Made by a program: the position numbers and the translations under genes
Assembly (NCBI GenBank): GCA_963753595.1
Contig: CAVWCX010000001.1
Location: 1-64,000, forward strand
From: Candidatus Methanoperedenaceae archaeon
Lineage (GTDB): Archaea > Halobacteriota > Methanosarcinia > Methanosarcinales > Methanoperedenaceae
DNA length: 64,000 bases
Direction of reading: 5' to 3'
Part shown: positions 9,035-30,803 of the stretch, one piece after another
How positions within the stretch are numbered: the stretch's first letter is position 1
Layout of the letters: every line of letters starts with the position of its first letter
Notes under the pieces: generated by a model
Told to the model about the DNA's origin: nothing
Databases searched by the model: none
The model's input: only the letters and a program-made list of their open reading frames with translations

Positions 9035-10492
9035 ATGCAAGCAATCACATCAGCCCGCATGGCAGCCATAGACGCAAATTGTGAATACCTGGGGATAAAA
9101 CGTCTCCAACTCATGGAAAATGCCGGCGCTGCGGTTGCTAATGCTGTAAAAGAAAGAATAGGCTCTGGAAAGGTTGTGATCATTGCAGGCAGGGGAAATA
9201 ATGGCGGTGATGCTTTCGTTGCTGCGCGGCATCTGGGTGGCTATGATGTCACTGTTATCCTCATTGGAAAAAAAGAGGAGATCAAAACACCAGAAGCACT
9301 GCATAACTGGAATGCTCTTGAAAAAATATCAATTCCGCTCATCGAAGCCGCGAATTCAAACGCTTTTGATCCTTCCATATTAAAAAATGCAAAAGTAATA
9401 ATTGATGGGATATTTGGGACCGGGGTGCGAGGGAAGATCCATGAGCCTGACTCCACTATCATTGATCTGATAAACGGCTCCGGCGCTTTCGTGCTTTCAA
9501 TTGATGTGCCATCCGGTTTTGATCCTGATGGGGGGGAATTTGAGAAAGCAGTGCATGCAGGACTGACTCTTACGTTTCATAAAATGAAAACAGGTTTCCT
9601 TTCACAAAATGCCCCACAATATACAGGTGAAGTCCGTGTTGTTGATATCGGGATACCAATGGAAGCAGAATTTTTTGTCGGGCCGGGAGATATACAGCCC
9701 TTCTTGAAAAGACCTGTGATAAGCCACAAAGGCGACGCAGGAAGAGTCCTCGTGATCGGGGGCGGCCCCTATTCAGGAGCATCCGCGCTAGCGGCTCTTG
9801 GAGCGCTTCGGGCTGGCGCGGACATTGTAACAGTGGCTGCGCCAAAGAATGTTTCGGATATCATAGCCTCATTTTCTCCAAATCTCATTGTAAAAAAGCT
9901 TACCGGGGATATACTTGTAGAAGATGATGTGCCGATTATTTCCAAGCTTATTGAAAAACACGATGTGGTCGTTATGGGTATGGGTCTTGGGAATGCATAT
10001 GAGACCCGTCTGGCTATTGAAAAAATAGTGCCATTATGCAGGAAAGCAGTAATTGACGCTGATGCCCTGTCCCTGGAATTGGTACCTCTACTTAATAAAA
10101 ATATGATCCTGACGCCCCATGCCGGTGAAATGAAACGGTTGACTGGAATTGATGTTCCGTTTGGGCAGAGGGAAAGAATTGAATTCATAAAAAATTTTGC
10201 ACAAAAAAATGAAGTCACAGTATTATTAAAAGGTGCAATAGACCTAATTTCTGATTGGCTGGAAGTCAGAGCTAACAGGACAGGCAATGCAGGCATGACC
10301 GTTGGCGGAACAGGAGATGTCCTTGCGGGCCTGGCAGGAGCCCTTTTTGCAAGATGCAATTCACCTCTTGAAGCCGCTGCTTGCGCAGCATTCATTAACG
10401 GAGCTGCAGGCGACATGGCATATAAGGAATTTGGGTATGGTCTTCTGGCGACAGATATCATTGATCTTATCCCGGCGGTTATGAAAGCATGA
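9035..10492 (+). CDS. nnr: Bifunctional NAD(P)HX epimerase/dehydratase
   Basis: LMENAG, GNNGGD, DGIFGTG, HKGDAG, TPHAGE, GGTGDVLAG; start at MQAITS. Confidence 0.95.
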   Translation: MQAITSARMAAIDANCEYLGIKRLQLMENAGAAVANAVKERIGSGKVVIIAGRGNNGGDAFVAARHLGGYDVTVILIGKKEEIKTPEALHNWNALEKISIPLIEAANSNAFDPSILKNAKVIIDGIFGTGVRGKIHEPDSTIIDLINGSGAFVLSIDVPSGFDPDGGEFEKAVHAGLTLTFHKMKTGFLSQNAPQYTGEVRVVDIGIPMEAEFFVGPGDIQPFLKRPVISHKGDAGRVLVIGGGPYSGASALAALGALRAGADIVTVAAPKNVSDIIASFSPNLIVKKLTGDILVEDDVPIISKLIEKHDVVVMGMGLGNAYETRLAIEKIVPLCRKAVIDADALSLELVPLLNKNMILTPHAGEMKRLTGIDVPFGQRERIEFIKNFAQKNEVTVLLKGAIDLISDWLEVRANRTGNAGMTVGGTGDVLAGLAGALFARCNSPLEAAACAAFINGAAGDMAYKEFGYGLLATDIIDLIPAVMKA

Positions 10493-10959
10493 AATTCTCA
10501 CATATCGAAGATGGCAGGGCTAAAATGGTTGATATCAGTGAAAAACACGATCTTTTCAGACGTGCAACAGCCACCGGTGTGATACAATTAAAGCCGGAAA
10601 CAATTGCAGCTATCAGGAATATGGAAATTGGGAAGGGGCCAGTTCTTGAGACTGCACGCATCGCATCTGTTATAGCGATAAAAAATACTTCCTCAGTGAT
10701 CCCGATGTGTCACCAAATAGCGATAACAGGAATTGATGTTCAATTTGATCTTGGAATTGAAAACGTGGTAGTGACAGTTGAGGTAAAATCCCTTGGGAAA
10801 ACCGGGGTTGAAATGGAAGCGCTTCATGGAGTAAGCGTAGCGCTCCTGACAATATGGGATATGGTAAAATCAGTGGAAAAAGACAAAACAGGGAACTATC
10901 CATCTACAGCGATCAAAAATATCCATGTAATTGAAAAGATCAAACAAAAAATTGAATAG
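10489..10959 (+). CDS. moaC: Cyclic pyranopterin monophosphate synthase
   Basis: MVDISEK, IPMCH, TGVEMEAL, WDMVKS. Confidence 0.96.
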   Translation: MKFSHIEDGRAKMVDISEKHDLFRRATATGVIQLKPETIAAIRNMEIGKGPVLETARIASVIAIKNTSSVIPMCHQIAITGIDVQFDLGIENVVVTVEVKSLGKTGVEMEALHGVSVALLTIWDMVKSVEKDKTGNYPSTAIKNIHVIEKIKQKIE

Positions 10960-10961
10960 GG

Positions 10962-11041
10962 TGCAGGCCAAGCGCCTAATAAAAACGATGGGTCGAAGGA
11001 GACTGAGGGTACTAAAGGCATTAGGCGCCTGATCCTACAGC
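10962..11041 (-). ncRNA. Putative sRNA copy 1 (variant 3' stem)
   Basis: Long stem preserved via G-U pairs on the minus strand; TATTAAATA 22 nt upstream. Confidence 0.65.
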
Positions 11042-11173
11042 AATATTCATGATGATTCAATAGTATTTAATATTAACTGTTTTATTCTTCAATATGAATA
11101 ATTATAATTATTATCATAACAATTGTTCTAAAGTAATACAGAAAACCGGAGAAATCTGTTTTTAGAAAAATGG

Positions 11174-11255
11174 TGTAGTTTTCAGGCGCCTAATAAAAAC
11201 GATGGGTCGAAGGAGACTGAGGGTACTAAAGGCATTAGGCGCCTGATCCTACAGC
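11174..11255 (-). ncRNA. Putative sRNA copy 2
   Basis: CAGGCGCCTAAT/ATTAGGCGCCTG stem, CU-rich loop, TATA upstream, T5 tract downstream. Confidence 0.65.
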
Positions 11256-11387
11256 AATATTCATGATGATTTAATAGTATTTAATATTAACTGTTTTATT
11301 CTTCGATATGAATAATTATAATTATTATCATAATAATTGTTCTAAAGTAATACAGAAAACCGGAGAAATCTGTTTTTAGAAAAATGG

Positions 11388-11469
11388 TGTAGTTTTCAGG
11401 CGCCTAATAAAAACGATGGGTCGAAGGAGACTGAGGGTACTAAAGGCATTAGGCGCCTGATCCTACAGC
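11388..11469 (-). ncRNA. Putative sRNA copy 3
   Basis: Same core as copy 2. Confidence 0.65.
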
Positions 11470-11601
11470 AATATTCATGATGATTTAATAGTATTTAATA
11501 TTAACTGTTTTATTCTTCGATATGAATAATTATAATTATTATCATAATAATTGTTCTAAAGTAACAAAGAAAACCGGAGAAATCTGTTTTTAGAAATATG
11601 G

Positions 11602-11683
11602 TGTAGTTTTCAGGCGCCTAATAAAAACGATGGGTCGAAGGAGACTGAGGGTACTAAAGGCATTAGGCGCCTGATCCTACAGC
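11602..11683 (-). ncRNA. Putative sRNA copy 4
   Basis: Same core; diverged upstream sequence still has TATTAAATA at the same 22-nt spacing. Confidence 0.65.
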
Positions 11684-11758
11684 AATGCGTATAATGTTCT
11701 GCTACTATTTAATATTTGCCCATATATTCTTTAAAAAGAATAATTATTATTATGCTCA

Positions 11759-13003
11759 TTATGAACGGGTACTTCGAGTTAGCTCGCCTGCGATATTAGT
11801 ATGCATCATGGCTTTTACTGTTTCAATGTCCTGTGTCTGCCCCAACACCCACATTAATTTTACAAGAGCTACCTCGGACAGCATATCTTCACTTTCGATC
11901 GCACCCGCTTTAAGGATATCCCTGCCCGTATCATAAACACGATCGCATACCCTTCCGTTTATGCATTGTGAAGTAATGACCACCGGGATACCGGCATCCG
12001 TAACTGTTTTTATAAGGGGGATCCATTCTGTAGAAACATGTCCAAGACCAGTACCTTCAATTACAATTCCCCTGTATCCGGAACCTGAATGGAATAAAAG
12101 AGATTCATTACTTGCTCCCGTAACATATTTTATCAGGGCGCATTTCGATTCCAGTTTTTCATGTATCGCAAGTTTTTTTTCGCCTCTTTTTACAAACGAA
12201 GAAACCATTTTAATTTCCCTTGATGGATATTCCACGCGTCCTATGGGGCGCGCGTTGATCGATTGGAAAGCGTCGCGTCGTGAGGTATGCATCTTGCGGA
12301 CTTTTGTTCCCCTGTGGATATAACAGAAATCATCACTCGTAGAGCCATGCATAACTACGCATACCTCTGCGATGTCACTTGTTGCGACTTTAGCTGCGCA
12401 TATTGCATTCATGGCATTATCGCTGCTTGGCCTGTCAGCGCTTCGCTGGGAGCCAACAAGCACAATGGGAACAGGTGTATCGATCATAAAAGAAAGCGCG
12501 GCAGCAGTATACATCATGGTATCTGTGCCATGGGTGATAATAACACCATCCGCGCCGTTCTTTATTTCTTCATATACGGCGCGTGCAAGCTCCACCCAGT
12601 AGGAAGGCCGCATGTTCTCACTCAGGATGCTGTAGATCATCCTGCAATTATAATTTGCCATTTCTTCAAGTTCCGGGATCGCGGAAAGGACGTCGTTTGC
12701 TGAAAATTGTGACGTTACGGCCCCGGTGCGGTAATCTATCTTGCTTGCAATGGTTCCGCCAGTTGAAAGAATGGAGATTTTAGGAAGATCTCCTTTTTTT
12801 TCCTTTTGCACCGTTTGCGTACGGGATATTTTTTCTTCTTTCTTATCAAGCAGGATCAAGGATGCTGATTCTTTTTTTATTCCGATATTATACCCATTTT
12901 TTAATTTTAAAACAATCCTGTCTGTTTGTGAGGGCATTAGTGTCCCTTCATATTTCACACCATTAGTTTCCACACTGACTTTATCGTAAATTTCTGCTTG
13001 CAT
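11759..13003 (-). CDS. gatD: Glu-tRNA(Gln) amidotransferase subunit D
   Basis: [11 protein letters not shown]-domain, [32 protein letters not shown]. Confidence 0.97.
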
Positions 13004-14415: not shown

Positions 14416-14490
14416 GGGCTCGTGGCTTAGCTTGGATATAGCGCCGGGCTTCTAACCCGGATGTCGAGGGTTCGAATCCCTCCGGGCCCG
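14416..14490 (+). tRNA. tRNA-Arg(TCT)
   Basis: Anticodon arm CCGGG-CTTCTAA-CCCGG, GGTTCGAATCC T-arm, acceptor GGGCTCG/CGGGCCC. Confidence 0.96.
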
Positions 14491-14523
14491 CTGAAAAATA
14501 TATCCTGGCAAAAAATCAAAAGC

Positions 14524-14595
14524 GCCTCGGTGGCTTAGAGGTATAGCGCGTCCTTGGTAAGGACGAGGTCGAGGGTTCAATTCCCTCCCGGGGCT
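14524..14595 (+). tRNA. tRNA-Thr(GGT)
   Basis: CGTCC-TTGGTAA-GGACG, GGTTCAATTCC, acceptor GCCTCGG/CCGGGGC. Confidence 0.96.
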
Positions 14596-26730: not shown

Positions 26731-26925
26731 TTTGTCACCTTATCTCATGGAACGTATCAGGTCATTGTAGGGTTGTTCTTCATATCAAATCTTTCTGTTT
26801 ACTCTGTAACTTTCATCCCACTGCCCTGATAACGTTATTCAATTTGAGCATCTGGTAGATTCAAAATCTGCGGTTATAAAATTAAATTAGAATAATATAT
26901 TAAAAAAAGACAGTGAAAAAAAAAA

Positions 26926-27237
26926 TTAACTGGTGAGAACTATCTCAATACTGATATCTTTAGGAACCTGAATGCGCATTAACTGGCGCAGTGCCCTTTC
27001 GTCAGCATCAAGGTCAATGAGTCTCTTATGAACTCTCATCTCCCAGTGATCCCATGTTGAACTTCCTTCGCCATCCGGGCTTTTCCTGCATGGCACTACT
27101 AATTTCTTAGTAGGGAGGGGAACCGGACCGCAAATGCTTACTCCTGTCTTGACCGCAATATCTTTCACCTGTGAACATATTCCATCAAGAGTAATGGGGC
27201 TTGTCCCCGATAAACGTATTCTTGCTTTCTGTACCAT
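26926..27237 (-). CDS. rpsJ: 30S ribosomal protein S10
   Basis: [27 protein letters not shown]. Confidence 0.98.
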
Positions 27238-27270
27238 AAATAACACCGTTTTATTGAAAAAGTGAGAATA

Positions 27271-28539
27271 TTATATTCTCGCTTTAATGTCCTGTACCAT
27301 TCCTGCGGCAATTGTCATTCCCATATCTCGGATCGCGAAGCGGCCAAGCTGCGGGATATCTTTTACCTTTTCGATACATAGAGGCTTTGCTGGTTTGATC
27401 GTCACGATAGCTGCATCCCCGGCTTTTATGAAATCGGGATTTTCAGCTGCGGTCTGACCGGTCTTTGGATCAAGTTTCTTTAATATGGCTGTGATCGTTC
27501 CTGCAACCTGTGCGGTATGGCAGTGAAGAACTGGTGTGTAACCAATTGTGATTGCTGACGGGTGCTGCAACACAACAATCTGTGCTGTGAATTCTTCAGC
27601 AACAGTTGGAGGTTTGGCAACAGGTCCGCAGACATCTCCACGTCTGATATCTTTCTTCTCAACACCCCTTACGTTCCATCCAATGTTATCGCCAGGAACT
27701 GCTTCTTTTATTTCCTGGTGATGCATTTCAATGGATTTGACTTCACCGACTGCTTTGGCCGGCATGAATATTATTTTATCACCGGGTTTCATCACTCCGG
27801 TCTCAACTCTACCTACTGGGACTGTTCCGATACCGGAAATTGTGTAAGCATCCTGAACAGGAATGCGAAGTGGTAATGTTGTGGGCTTATCTGGCATTTT
27901 CAACTGATCAAGAGCGGTAAGCAAAGTCGGTCCTGTGTACCATTTTGTATTCTCACTTGCCTTTGCAAGGTTATCGCCTTTGAAAGCTGATGTTGGGATG
28001 AAGTTCATTTCATCCGGCTTATATCCGACCATTTTGAGAAGTGTGCTGACATCGGCTTTTACTTGATCATATCGAGCCTTATCATAGTTGACTTCATCCA
28101 TTTTGTTGATGGCTATGATCAACTGGGTAATACCCAGAGTTCTTGAAAGGAATACATGTTCTTTTGTCTGTGACTGGACGCCTTCTTTGCCTGCTACTAC
28201 AAGAATTGCAGCATCAGCCTGTGAAGCGCCTGTGATCATGTTCTTTACGAAATCCCTGTGGCCAGGGCAGTCCACGACCGTGAAATAATATTTTGCAGTA
28301 TCAAATCGCTGGTGAGCAACGTCTATTGTGATACCCCTGTCTCTCTCTTCCTTAAGAGAGTCCATGACCCATGCGAAAACGAAGGATTCTTTACCTTTCG
28401 CTTTTGCTTCTTCTCTGTATTTTTCTATGATGTGTGGCGGTACTGCGCCAGTATCATACATTAATCGCCCTGTAAGGGTTGATTTTCCGTGGTCTATATG
28501 CCCTATAATTGCTAAATTTAAATGTGGTTTCTCTGCCAT
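27271..28539 (-). CDS. tuf: Translation elongation factor aEF-1 alpha
   Basis: [36 protein letters not shown]. Confidence 0.99.
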
Positions 28540-28613
28540 AATTTTTCTCCTTTATATTTATTGAAGATGTTTTGTGTTCGTATTGTTGTTTTTGTTTTTA
28601 AACCTTCCGTTCC

Positions 28614-30803
28614 TCAGGGACTTATGAAATCACTTGGTTTAGGCAGTTCAAGTTTAAGTCCTTTCCTCTGCCTGATGGCCATTACGATCTCATTTAGCAT
28701 GTTCCCCGGAATCGGTTCAAATCCGACAAATTCCGTGCTCCACATGGCTCTGCCTTCAGTAGCCGAGCGGATATCACCGGAGAACCCGAATAACTGTGCA
28801 ACGGGTGCTTTTGACTCGATAATGGTCATGTCGCCTTCGGATTGCATATCAAGTATAGAGCCGCGCCGACCCTGCATCTCACGCATTGCGCCTCCCATCT
28901 GGTCATGCGGGACATGTATGAACACTTTCTGGAAAGGTTCAAGAAGAGTGGCACCGGCCATAAGCATTGCAGCTTGTATTGCCTGTCTTGATGCGGGAAT
29001 GACCTGCGCCGGTCCCCTGTGAACTGCATCTTCGTGAAGTTTCGCATCCATTAATTTTACCTTTACACCCATTACCGGTTCACGGGACAAAGGTCCGGCC
29101 TTCATGACCTCTTCAAATCCTTCAAGGATCAGTTCCATTGTTTCATGCAGGTACTGGATACCTTTGGTCATATCTATGTACATATTTGTTTCATAAATAT
29201 GAGCGATACTCTTGGCTTCATCCTTGCTCATTCCTGCTTTCATCAGTGTGTCCCTGCGTTCAACTTCTCCCTGCCTCATTGAAACTTCATTGTTCTTTAT
29301 AAGTTCAATTATAGCCGGGGACAAAGGTTCAACTTCAACGTAGAACCTGTTGTGACGGTTGGGAGATTTCCCTTCCACAGGACCGACATGGCCTGAGATC
29401 GTTTCCCTGTAAACTACAAGCGGTTTGGATGTAGTGATATCAACATGTTTGTCACGCTTGATCCTGCCTGCTACTACCTCAAGATGAAGTTCACCCATTC
29501 CTGCAAGCAGATGCTCTCCAGTTTCCTGGTTTATCATTACTTTAAGAGTTGGGTCTTCTTTTGCGACCTGTCTTAATACTTCAACAAGTTTTGGCAGGTC
29601 TTTCATGTGTTTAGCTTCAACGGCCACAGTCATAACAGGCTCGCTGACATGCCTTATGCTCTCAAATGGGGTCATGTTTTTATCGCTTGATGCTGTAGAA
29701 CCCACGATCGCATCAGTCAAACCGGTTACTGCTACGATATTTCCGGCAGGGATATTATCACATTCAATTCGCTCAGGACCCATAAATAAACCTACTGACT
29801 GTATCCTGTTAGCGTTAGGCATTCCTGAAATGAAAACTTCCTTGCCCCTTTCAAGAGTACCTGAGAAAAGCCTTCCGCTTGCTACTTCACCCGCATGCGG
29901 GTCGGTGGTAATGTCTGTTATCATTAAAGCTATCTTTCCGCCTCTGTCCACGTTAATCATGGACTTTCCGATCTCGCTTTCCTTGTCGCCGTGCCAGATG
30001 ACTTTAATTCGTTCCTGTTGTGCCTTGACAGGACTTGGAAGGAATTTGATGATCATATCATTCATCACTACATGAAGCGGGCATTTTTTAGCAAGTTCAT
30101 TCTGCTTTTCAGCCTGGCATAATTCGATAATTTCCTTAAATCCGATGCCAGTCTTTTTCATATAGGGAATGCTTATTGCCCAGTTATTTAAGGCTGATCC
30201 GAATGCAACTTTGCCAACTGCAGGGTCAAGCTTCAGTCTCTCATAATCGTCAGGTTTCAGGCCTTTAACGATCTTATTGACTTTATCAATAACAAGCCCC
30301 AGCCGCATTTGCATATCAGCAGGTGTAAGTTTTATCTCATTGATCAGCCGGTCAACCTTGTTTATGAAAAGAATTGGTGTTACATTTTCACGAAGCGCCT
30401 GACGCAGCACTGTTTCAGTCTGCGGCATAGGACCTTCGACAGCGTCAACCAGGACGACTGCCCCATCCACTGCCCTCATTGCTCGGGTTACGTCGCCGCC
30501 AAAGTCAACGTGGCCCGGTGTATCGATAAGGTTGATGAGATAGTCCTGCCCGTCAAAATTATGCACCATAGAAACAGTTGCAGAATCAATGGTAATGCCA
30601 CGTCTTTGTTCTTCTTCATCAAAGTCCATGAATAATTGTTCGCCAGCCAGTTCTGATGAAATCATGCCTGCGCCGGCAAGTAGATTATCTGAGAATGTTG
30701 TTTTTCCATGGTCAATATGTGCAACCGTACCGATGTTTCGGATAAACTCAGGTTTATCCATCAGTTCAGTTACATGTTCAACCATTTTCTTTCGTCTGCC
30801 CAT
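28614..30803 (-). CDS. fusA: Translation elongation factor aEF-2
   Basis: [25 protein letters not shown], diphthamide loop [11 protein letters not shown]. Confidence 0.99.

Follow-up and report, generated by a model that had tools for sequence, protein, structure and literature searches.

Four tandem units of 214 bp each occupy positions 10962-11715 of the analysed window (the whole 64,000-nt stretch, positions 1 to 64,000 of contig CAVWCX010000001.1 from a Candidatus Methanoperedenaceae archaeon), and they almost certainly belong to a real family of non-coding RNA genes on the minus strand. Methanoperedens (ANME-2d) archaea use nitrate or metals to oxidise methane, and they carry extrachromosomal elements of an unusual kind. 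The family is a previously undescribed one of a known type: its members are genes for a small non-coding RNA that may be a multicopy CU-rich regulator. An initial annotation of the sequence had proposed separate minus-strand small RNA (sRNA) genes, each with a promoter and a hairpin, and this is well supported by stem covariation, by a promoter at a fixed distance and by conservation throughout the family. In the fuller reading, four tandem, independently transcribed minus-strand genes would each yield a small non-coding RNA of ~85-100 nt that would act in trans via an exposed single-stranded loop; the probability of this whole statement is put at roughly 0.45.

Structure and strand of the array units

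The tandem array of four with a 214-bp period that had been described was borne out by each search. Tandem Repeats Finder returned a single array (10972-11686; period 214, 3.3 copies, 98% matches, score 1388), a repeat search found 300-nt copies from 10969, 11183 and 11397 (identity 100/99/96%), and an 87-nt core occurred four times in the 2.89-Mb assembly, each time at the array (10969-11046, 11174-11260, 11388-11474 and 11602-11686). Read on the minus strand, the unit consists of TATTAAATA, a spacer of exactly 22 nt, a hairpin starting GCUGUAGGAUCAGGCGCCUAAU with a loop of ~39 nt, the 3' arm and a U-tract. The minus-strand core agrees with that given in the initial annotation. The hairpin of copy 1 lies at 10962..11041 (loop core 10986-11018), that of copy 2 at 11174..11255 (loop core 11200-11232), the same hairpin in copy 3 at 11388..11469 (loop core 11414-11446), and that of copy 4, which is closest to gatD, at 11602..11683 (loop core 11628-11660). 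A covariance model of the family matched copy 1 at 10946-11050 (110.7 bits), copy 2 at 11160-11264 (125.9 bits), copy 3 at 11374-11478 (125.9 bits) and copy 4 at 11588-11692 (119.7 bits).

The promoter, as predicted from sequence, is the strongest evidence for the minus strand. The TATA-like box TATTAAATA was located on that strand at 11064..11072 (copy 1, with a purine-rich stretch resembling a B recognition element (BRE) immediately 5'), 11278..11286 (copy 2), 11492..11500 (copy 3) and 11706..11714 (copy 4). In 4/4 copies exactly 22 nt separate it from the first stem base downstream, as had been claimed, and this includes copy 4, in which the intervening sequence has diverged. The surrounding block (...AAGCGTAAATATTAAATACT, which reads ACAGTTAATATTAAATACT here) is at a fixed distance from the hairpin in all species, reading AAGCGTAAATATTAAATACT in most of them, and both unlinked paralogues and a mobile element retain it. 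In most relatives the hairpin is followed by U-rich tracts. In the window they comprise U6 after copy 1 (10946..10951, minus strand, a putative archaeal terminator inside the 3' end of the opposite-strand moaC), U5 after copies 2 and 3 (11166-11170 and 11380-11384) and only U3 after copy 4 (11594-11596). Host, paralogue and element copies alike carry, by sequence, a BRE/TATA promoter 22 nt upstream and a U-tract downstream of their own. At 11594-11599, CCAUAUUUC of copy 4 stands in place of the CCAUUUUUC found in copies 2 and 3, which breaks the tract to U3; transcripts of copy 4 may read through into the spacer toward copy 3. The 3' end of the copy 1 RNA is antisense to the final codons of moaC.

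The hairpin comprises an outer helix of ~5 bp, a variable internal loop, an inner helix of ~13 bp and a single-stranded, CU-rich loop of ~39 nt. In this genome the minus strand folds at -30.7 kcal/mol (copy 2, z -5.87). The covariation check across relatives that the initial annotation had called for was made on an alignment of 64 distinct copies found by similarity search (A1), which was also the source of the covariance model (R1). RNAalifold predicted the stem from its 64 rows, with compensatory changes in 7/16 pairs. With a hand-written full stem, 91.7% of cells were paired, compared with 84.8 +/- 0.5 in shuffles (0/500 reached the observed value), and pairing dropped to 29-40% when the partners were slid; the covariation score was 0.316 vs 0.190 in shuffles (0/500), and the sequences are related, so these shuffle counts overstate significance. 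The inner helix was 95.8% paired, and 8/13 of its pairs had changed on both sides. The variant 3' arm noted in copy 1 (...GGCGCUUGGCCUGCA, with the 5' arm running from 11041 and the 3' arm ending at 10962) is present and pairs via G-U and U-G.

The kind of mismatch tolerated in the stem bears on the strand. In a model-fitted alignment (96/117 rows kept, 79 of them distinct, after opposite-strand and truncated matches were dropped), the helix cells comprised 1244 Watson-Crick pairs, 89 G-U, 29 A-C (16 of these at the loop-closing position) and 47 others. A G-U pair turns into an A-C mismatch on the opposite strand, and the excess of G-U over A-C therefore indicates the minus strand. The stem is a scaffold only, free to vary while pairing is kept, and the loop, nearly invariant throughout the Methanoperedenaceae, is the working part.

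The same strand-specific, G-U-tolerant covariation argues against an explanation in which the array yields no RNA, being either a repeat that acts as DNA (protein-binding or origin-like) or an assembly artefact. The AT-rich spacers between copies would fit such an explanation, as would the identity of copies 2 and 3, which could lead a short-read assembly to miscount them; copies 1, 2/3 and 4 can be told apart. However, the RNA is single-copy in most species, arrays with distinguishable copies occur in many independent assemblies, and the locus is not near cdc6/orc1, so that this explanation is extremely improbable.

The opposite strand was considered as the coding one. In 4/4 copies the plus strand reads ATG GGT CGA AGG AGA CTG AGG GTA CTA AAG GCA TTA GGC GCC TGA, and it had been suggested that this could encode a micropeptide of 14 aa (MGRRRLRVLKALGA), alone or in a sense/antisense pair resembling a type I toxin-antitoxin system. 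The first 10-11 codons are retained in most of 137 distinct copies (53 copies share the most frequent peptide and 21 the second), and one diverged copy that lacks the ATG gains an in-frame ATG 3 nt upstream. This conservation is, however, wholly at the nucleotide level: loop substitutions traced by hand all alter a residue, the start or the stop and none is synonymous, while the C-terminus and the length (11 to >21 aa) track the stem sequence. The frame gives only MG* or MV* in two copies, lacks its ATG in two and is shifted by an additional C in three. The plus strand has neither a Shine-Dalgarno (SD) sequence nor a promoter-like box, the conserved promoter and U-tracts being on the minus strand, and the peptide, being basic, lacks the hydrophobic character of type I toxins; a conserved small hydrophobic toxin frame opposite an antisense RNA was not found. 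The open reading frame (ORF) is thus not conserved as a protein, and the suggestion is poorly supported and very improbable.

Known RNA classes were also compared with the unit. The Rfam search that had been recommended (Rfam 15) gave seven matches at E up to 10 and no family near its gathering score; the best, at 18.3 bits against a gathering score of 89, was a microRNA model that simply fits a hairpin. No tRNA or transfer-messenger RNA was found in the array by ARAGORN, and the window has only tRNA-Arg (14416-14491) and tRNA-Thr (14524-14595). Archaeal box C/D sRNAs have a C box (RUGAUGA), a D box (CUGA) and a kink-turn (K-turn); UGAUGA is absent here, and the CUGA of the 3' arm is CUAA in many species. 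Archaeal H/ACA sRNAs have a conserved ACA box 3' of the hairpin and a K-turn or K-loop, whereas the sequence after the stem is ACACC here and ACUCC in most species, and the internal loop varies in size and sequence. A type III toxin-antitoxin (ToxI-like) array was rejected on the grounds that the units are 214 bp long with their own promoters and that the neighbours are gatD and moaC, not a toxin endoribonuclease.

Distribution, locus and copy number

The RNA family is lineage-specific and near-universal within its lineage, since genomes of the family match and 102 outside it do not. With one copy as query, blastn found a match in 49/53 Methanoperedenaceae genomes and in 34/34 of those of good quality; the four without a match are 63-74% complete. 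Covariance model R1 matched 46/48 genomes of the family and, under stricter filters, 0/102 genomes from five other families of the order. The regions downstream of gatD at six loci in two sister families, viewed by eye, showed no such RNA: at five loci, all in one family, a protein-coding sequence came next, directly or within ~230 nt, and at the sixth no such hairpin was seen. The PLSDB plasmid and INPHARED phage collections held no match to the RNA.

The primary locus is conserved. The RNA follows gatD on a shared strand, ~75 nt past the gatD stop, and faces moaC. In the window, the upstream neighbour is gatD (11759..13003, minus strand; Glu-tRNA(Gln) amidotransferase subunit D, with Pfam GatD_N and Asparaginase domains) and the convergent downstream neighbour is moaC (10489..10959, plus strand; Pfam MoaC, E 3e-47). 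In each of the three genera with the RNA, gatD adjoins it; moaC is absent at four genome loci that still have gatD, and 47/66 metagenome loci are at gatD and/or moaC. A second recurrent locus was seen in metagenomes (L182, L192, L195, L200 and L219), where 400-800 nt separate a copy from a DUF2551 gene; on its other side, L182 has a glyoxalase gene and a gene for a flavin oxidoreductase of the old yellow enzyme (OYE) type.

Copy number varies among species. The array had been called 'dosage-amplified', and this holds for some species only: of 47 genomes matched by the model, 15 have two to five matches and 32 have one. Close relatives and metagenome contigs again show tandem arrays, spaced at 205-220 bp, arrays of two to four copies recur across independent assemblies, and in a different genus (G050) two copies with 142-nt spacing form an independent array. 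In two arrays the copy number is unreliable: one in a species genome (L013, G007:C34) contains runs of N, a masked or scaffolded stretch, and one from a metagenome (L210) has many single-base indels of the kind seen in error-prone long-read assembly. Tandem repeats are described as virtually absent from host Methanoperedens genomes in the Borg tandem-repeat paper (PMC9879509), and the present array differs from Borg-type repeats in being a duplicated gene unit.

A literature search returned no small RNA described for Methanoperedens, and the loop sequence, used as a text string, had no match. The unusual features of the family are its long invariant loop, its homologues on extrachromosomal elements and its fixed position behind gatD. 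Near-universal presence in the family, a strong conserved promoter, a loop frozen across three genera, repeated amplification and copies on mobile elements are features that usually mark a central cellular role. The covariance model allows the RNA to be annotated in every Methanoperedens genome and metatranscriptome, and the RNA offers a handle on post-transcriptional control and on host-element interaction in an uncultured, environmentally important lineage.

The invariant loop and its possible partners

The statement that the loop is invariant while the spacers drift proved well founded. The 33-nt loop core, CCUUUAGUACCCUCAGUCUCCUUCGACCCAUCG, is exact in 110/137 distinct full-length copies and in 58/64 A1 copies; copies from the pattern scan hold part of the core by construction, and the 64 A1 copies come from the similarity search. 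Changes concentrate in the third C-run, where ACCCAU becomes AACCAU, AAACAU or ACACAU. Among the paralogues the changes likewise fall in the C-runs, and UUUAGUA, CCUCAGUCUC, UUCGA and CAUCG are fixed. A distinct paralogue class with the loop GUCUUUAGUAGCCUCAGUCUCUUUCGAAACAUCG occurs in four genomes (G006, G008, G037 and G040) at a dinB / methyltransferase locus. The loop is predicted to be essentially unpaired and contains the blocks CCCUC, CUCCUUC and CCCAUC; its central CUCCU is that of the 3' end of the organism's own 16S rRNA (...GGAUCACCUCCU).

A regulatory mechanism can be proposed from these features. The CCCUC / CUCCUUC / CCCAUC blocks would pair with purine-rich, SD-like stretches of several mRNAs, and extra copies of the gene would raise the dose of the RNA. 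It would then work in a manner analogous to the multicopy CU-rich sRNAs of Gram-positive bacteria and to the sRNAs of Methanosarcina that mask ribosome-binding sites. Action by base-pairing with mRNAs is given slightly under even odds.

The closest bacterial parallel is LhrC1-5 of Listeria monocytogenes, for which PMC4132741 describes redundant UCCC motifs whose binding to the G-rich SD region blocks translation, with additive effects of the copies; the same article places them in a wider group of UCCC-motif sRNAs with RsaE, RNAIII and FsrA. As far as LhrC is described there, both systems are multicopy sibling sRNA genes, each with a promoter and a terminator (here by sequence), and both have several redundant C/U-rich motifs in unpaired regions; the unpaired C/U-rich motifs of the CU-rich, SD-binding sRNA class are thus present in the loop. 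The RNA here nevertheless has no sequence or Rfam-level relationship to LhrC, and it is archaeal, with a BRE/TATA promoter and oligo-U termination. It also differs from LhrC, as portrayed in that account, in being a single hairpin that carries all of its motifs in one 39-nt loop, the entire loop being invariant. LhrC1-4 reportedly lie in tandem.

Within the Archaea, sRNA154 and sRNA41 of Methanosarcina mazei mask ribosome-binding sites with loop sequences complementary to them, according to the summary in a review (PMC5867862). They resemble the present RNA in being intergenic sRNAs, and the archaeal order is common to both. However, going by the same review they are nitrogen-regulated, and the covariance model matched none of 48 genomes from the largest sister family and nothing in the other four families, so that homology to these sRNAs is unsupported. 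Both sRNA154 and sRNA41 are said to be single-copy.

A number of results weigh against the proposed mechanism. Masking of SD sequences and start codons in trans, as first suggested, was not borne out: there is no complement of at least 14 nt, no enrichment at start regions and no conservation of the best site. The order of the loop motifs, with the CU-rich blocks 5' of CAU, precludes contiguous pairing over the SD and AUG of one gene. The longest Watson-Crick complement of the loop in the genome is 13 nt, which is at chance level. This 13-mer, an exact complement of the 5' part of the loop (UGAGGGUACUAAA; G000:C7:54976-54988, minus strand), covers the SD of a gene for AMP phosphorylase, at 2 nt from the AUG, and decays to 7-11 nt or less in 5/5 relatives, so that it is probably a chance match. 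A 10-mer initially placed before a Trm5/Taw2-like gene is in fact within coding sequence and is unconserved, and a mini-RNase-III-like gene with a 10-mer had no orthologue in the five genomes searched. Predicted duplex energies averaged -13.4 kcal/mol for 2875 start regions (crude calls) and -13.7 kcal/mol for mid-gene windows; these energies do not discriminate, because G-rich windows anywhere pair with a CU-rich loop. G-U-tolerant helices of at least 13 bp numbered 212, compared with 284-537 for shuffled loops (fewer than 5/5 of them), and the start region of gatD pairs worse with the loop than with shuffled loops. Among tRNAs, the longest helix with the loop was an unremarkable 9 bp, including G-U pairs, in T-arms, and the 16S rRNA, which is present in the assembly, forms no helix of at least 14 bp with it. 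The 33 invariant nucleotides, moreover, exceed what a seed requires and also fit a protein or ribosome ligand.

The points on the same side that concern transcription are of two kinds. Folding energy does not select the strand, since shuffles fold much less well than either strand and the plus strand reaches -36.4 kcal/mol against -30.7 for the minus strand here. A small share of the sequence words was found in 19 sequencing runs, 11 of them recorded as RNA, and the RNA-library contigs (four runs) derive from relatives, are short and have low depth, and extend over spacers and promoters as well; one of 113 nt covers 10961-11041 and continues into unlike sequence. These contigs show presence in RNA libraries, and neither a discrete transcript nor its strand.

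As the pairing tests gave no further support, a protein- or ribosome-binding role is a serious rival, albeit a rather doubtful one. The RNA would then be a ligand or ribonucleoprotein scaffold, with the invariant loop as the binding surface for a conserved protein or machine; the partner could be a translation factor or, at the U-rich 3' part, an Sm-like protein, or the RNA could serve as a decoy or sponge, and not as an antisense regulator. The invariance of 33 nt while the stems vary freely, the confinement of paralogue changes mainly to the C-runs around fixed elements, and the lack of a conserved mRNA target or start-region enrichment would all be expected of such a surface. The RNA has no conserved K-turn, C/D or H/ACA boxes, however, and no gene for a partner protein is consistently linked to it, the neighbours varying by locus.

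Genes related to tRNA charging recur near the RNA and may be read as favouring the protein-binding alternative: a gene with an aminoacyl-tRNA synthetase domain, or gatD, lies within ~2 kb at 5/8 distinct genome loci with a copy, although orientation and distance are inconsistent and the category was picked after viewing the data. The genes concerned are those for PheRS alpha, Tyr/TrpRS, a class IIb OB-fold, a class IIa anticodon-binding domain and gatD, at L124 (G015:C28), L126 (G037:C68), L120-L122 (G037, G040 and G006), L044 (G043:C112) and 11759-13003 of the window. Against this, ~9 further metagenome loci have no synthetase gene within 1.5 kb of the RNA.

A broader speculation joins the loop to the translation machinery. 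The loop may mimic the anti-SD end of 16S rRNA and serve as a family-wide translation modulator; extrachromosomal elements would carry versions of their own, with the loop kept and the stem re-invented, to tap or override the host circuit, the loop possibly being their attachment site as well, and tandem amplification would be a dosage response. This combination is considered unlikely.

Copies on extrachromosomal elements

A full copy of the RNA is carried by an element listed in IMG/VR (record G155; 54,970 bp, 42.9% G+C) whose 127-bp direct terminal repeat indicates that it is circular. The loop is shared with the host and the stem is wholly different (UCCGGGUAUCUU / AAGGUGCCCGGA, 12 pairs, two of them U-G). 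This copy comes with a TATA-like box and a U-tract of its own, and its folding energy is -31.4 kcal/mol (z -4.83). Two metagenome contigs, one of 53 kb, share with the element a Kelch-protein gene and the adjacent RNA copy at 65-83% nucleotide identity, and a third matches the element at the RNA copy only, the stem type being common to both.

Genes for tRNAs serve both as integration targets and as cargo of mobile elements. The RNA gene here resembles them in being a short, highly conserved stable-RNA gene, and in that a mobile element shares an exact block with it, beside an integrase gene, and carries a working-looking copy. These likenesses raise an explanation of the invariant loop that is compatible with either pairing or protein binding, namely that it doubles as a chromosomal attachment site for integrative extrachromosomal elements, the element copy being both attP and a working gene. 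The only similarity between the element and the genome (word size at least 16) is the RNA core, which matches over 38 nt at 100% and 61 nt at 88.5%; a tyrosine-integrase gene lies ~700 nt from the element's copy, so that an exact 38-nt block does stand beside a recombinase; and the element has no tRNA gene. On a metagenome contig of 1,059 bp, a diverged copy lies 26 nt upstream of a serine-recombinase gene.

Several findings speak against this use of the loop. A search of 53 family genomes with the integrase sequence revealed no integrated form, and thus no integrated element flanked by a duplicated core; the integrase has only two weak relatives in those genomes, neither of them at an RNA locus. 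The related 53-kb contig has no integrase within 1.5 kb of the RNA. Unlike the tRNA case, the RNA is not a tRNA (ARAGORN), and the shared block is the loop, so that recombination there would give genes with mismatched arms; no such hybrids were present among the copies examined. The element copy is, moreover, a complete gene with a compensated stem, which an attachment core does not need. An attachment site is therefore regarded as improbable.

The diverged copy on the 1,059-bp contig (L188, 786-848) is GC-rich (57%), has a 9-bp stem and an insertion in the loop, and lies upstream of the serine-recombinase (resolvase) gene with no AT-rich promoter block visible; it may come from another element or lineage.

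The gene content of the 54,970-bp element includes Orc1/Cdc6, an RFC-like clamp loader, ParA, two tyrosine integrases, a transposase and sugar-modifying enzymes. Neither PHROGs (65 ORFs) nor Pfam (18 larger ORFs) revealed a capsid or terminase, and since none was found the element looks as plasmid-like as it does virus-like; its listing as a virus may be wrong. At ~26,900-29,300 it encodes a reverse transcriptase of the diversity-generating retroelement (DGR) type (PHROG 1423, E 6e-125), adjoining an Mtd-like 'tail protein' target gene.

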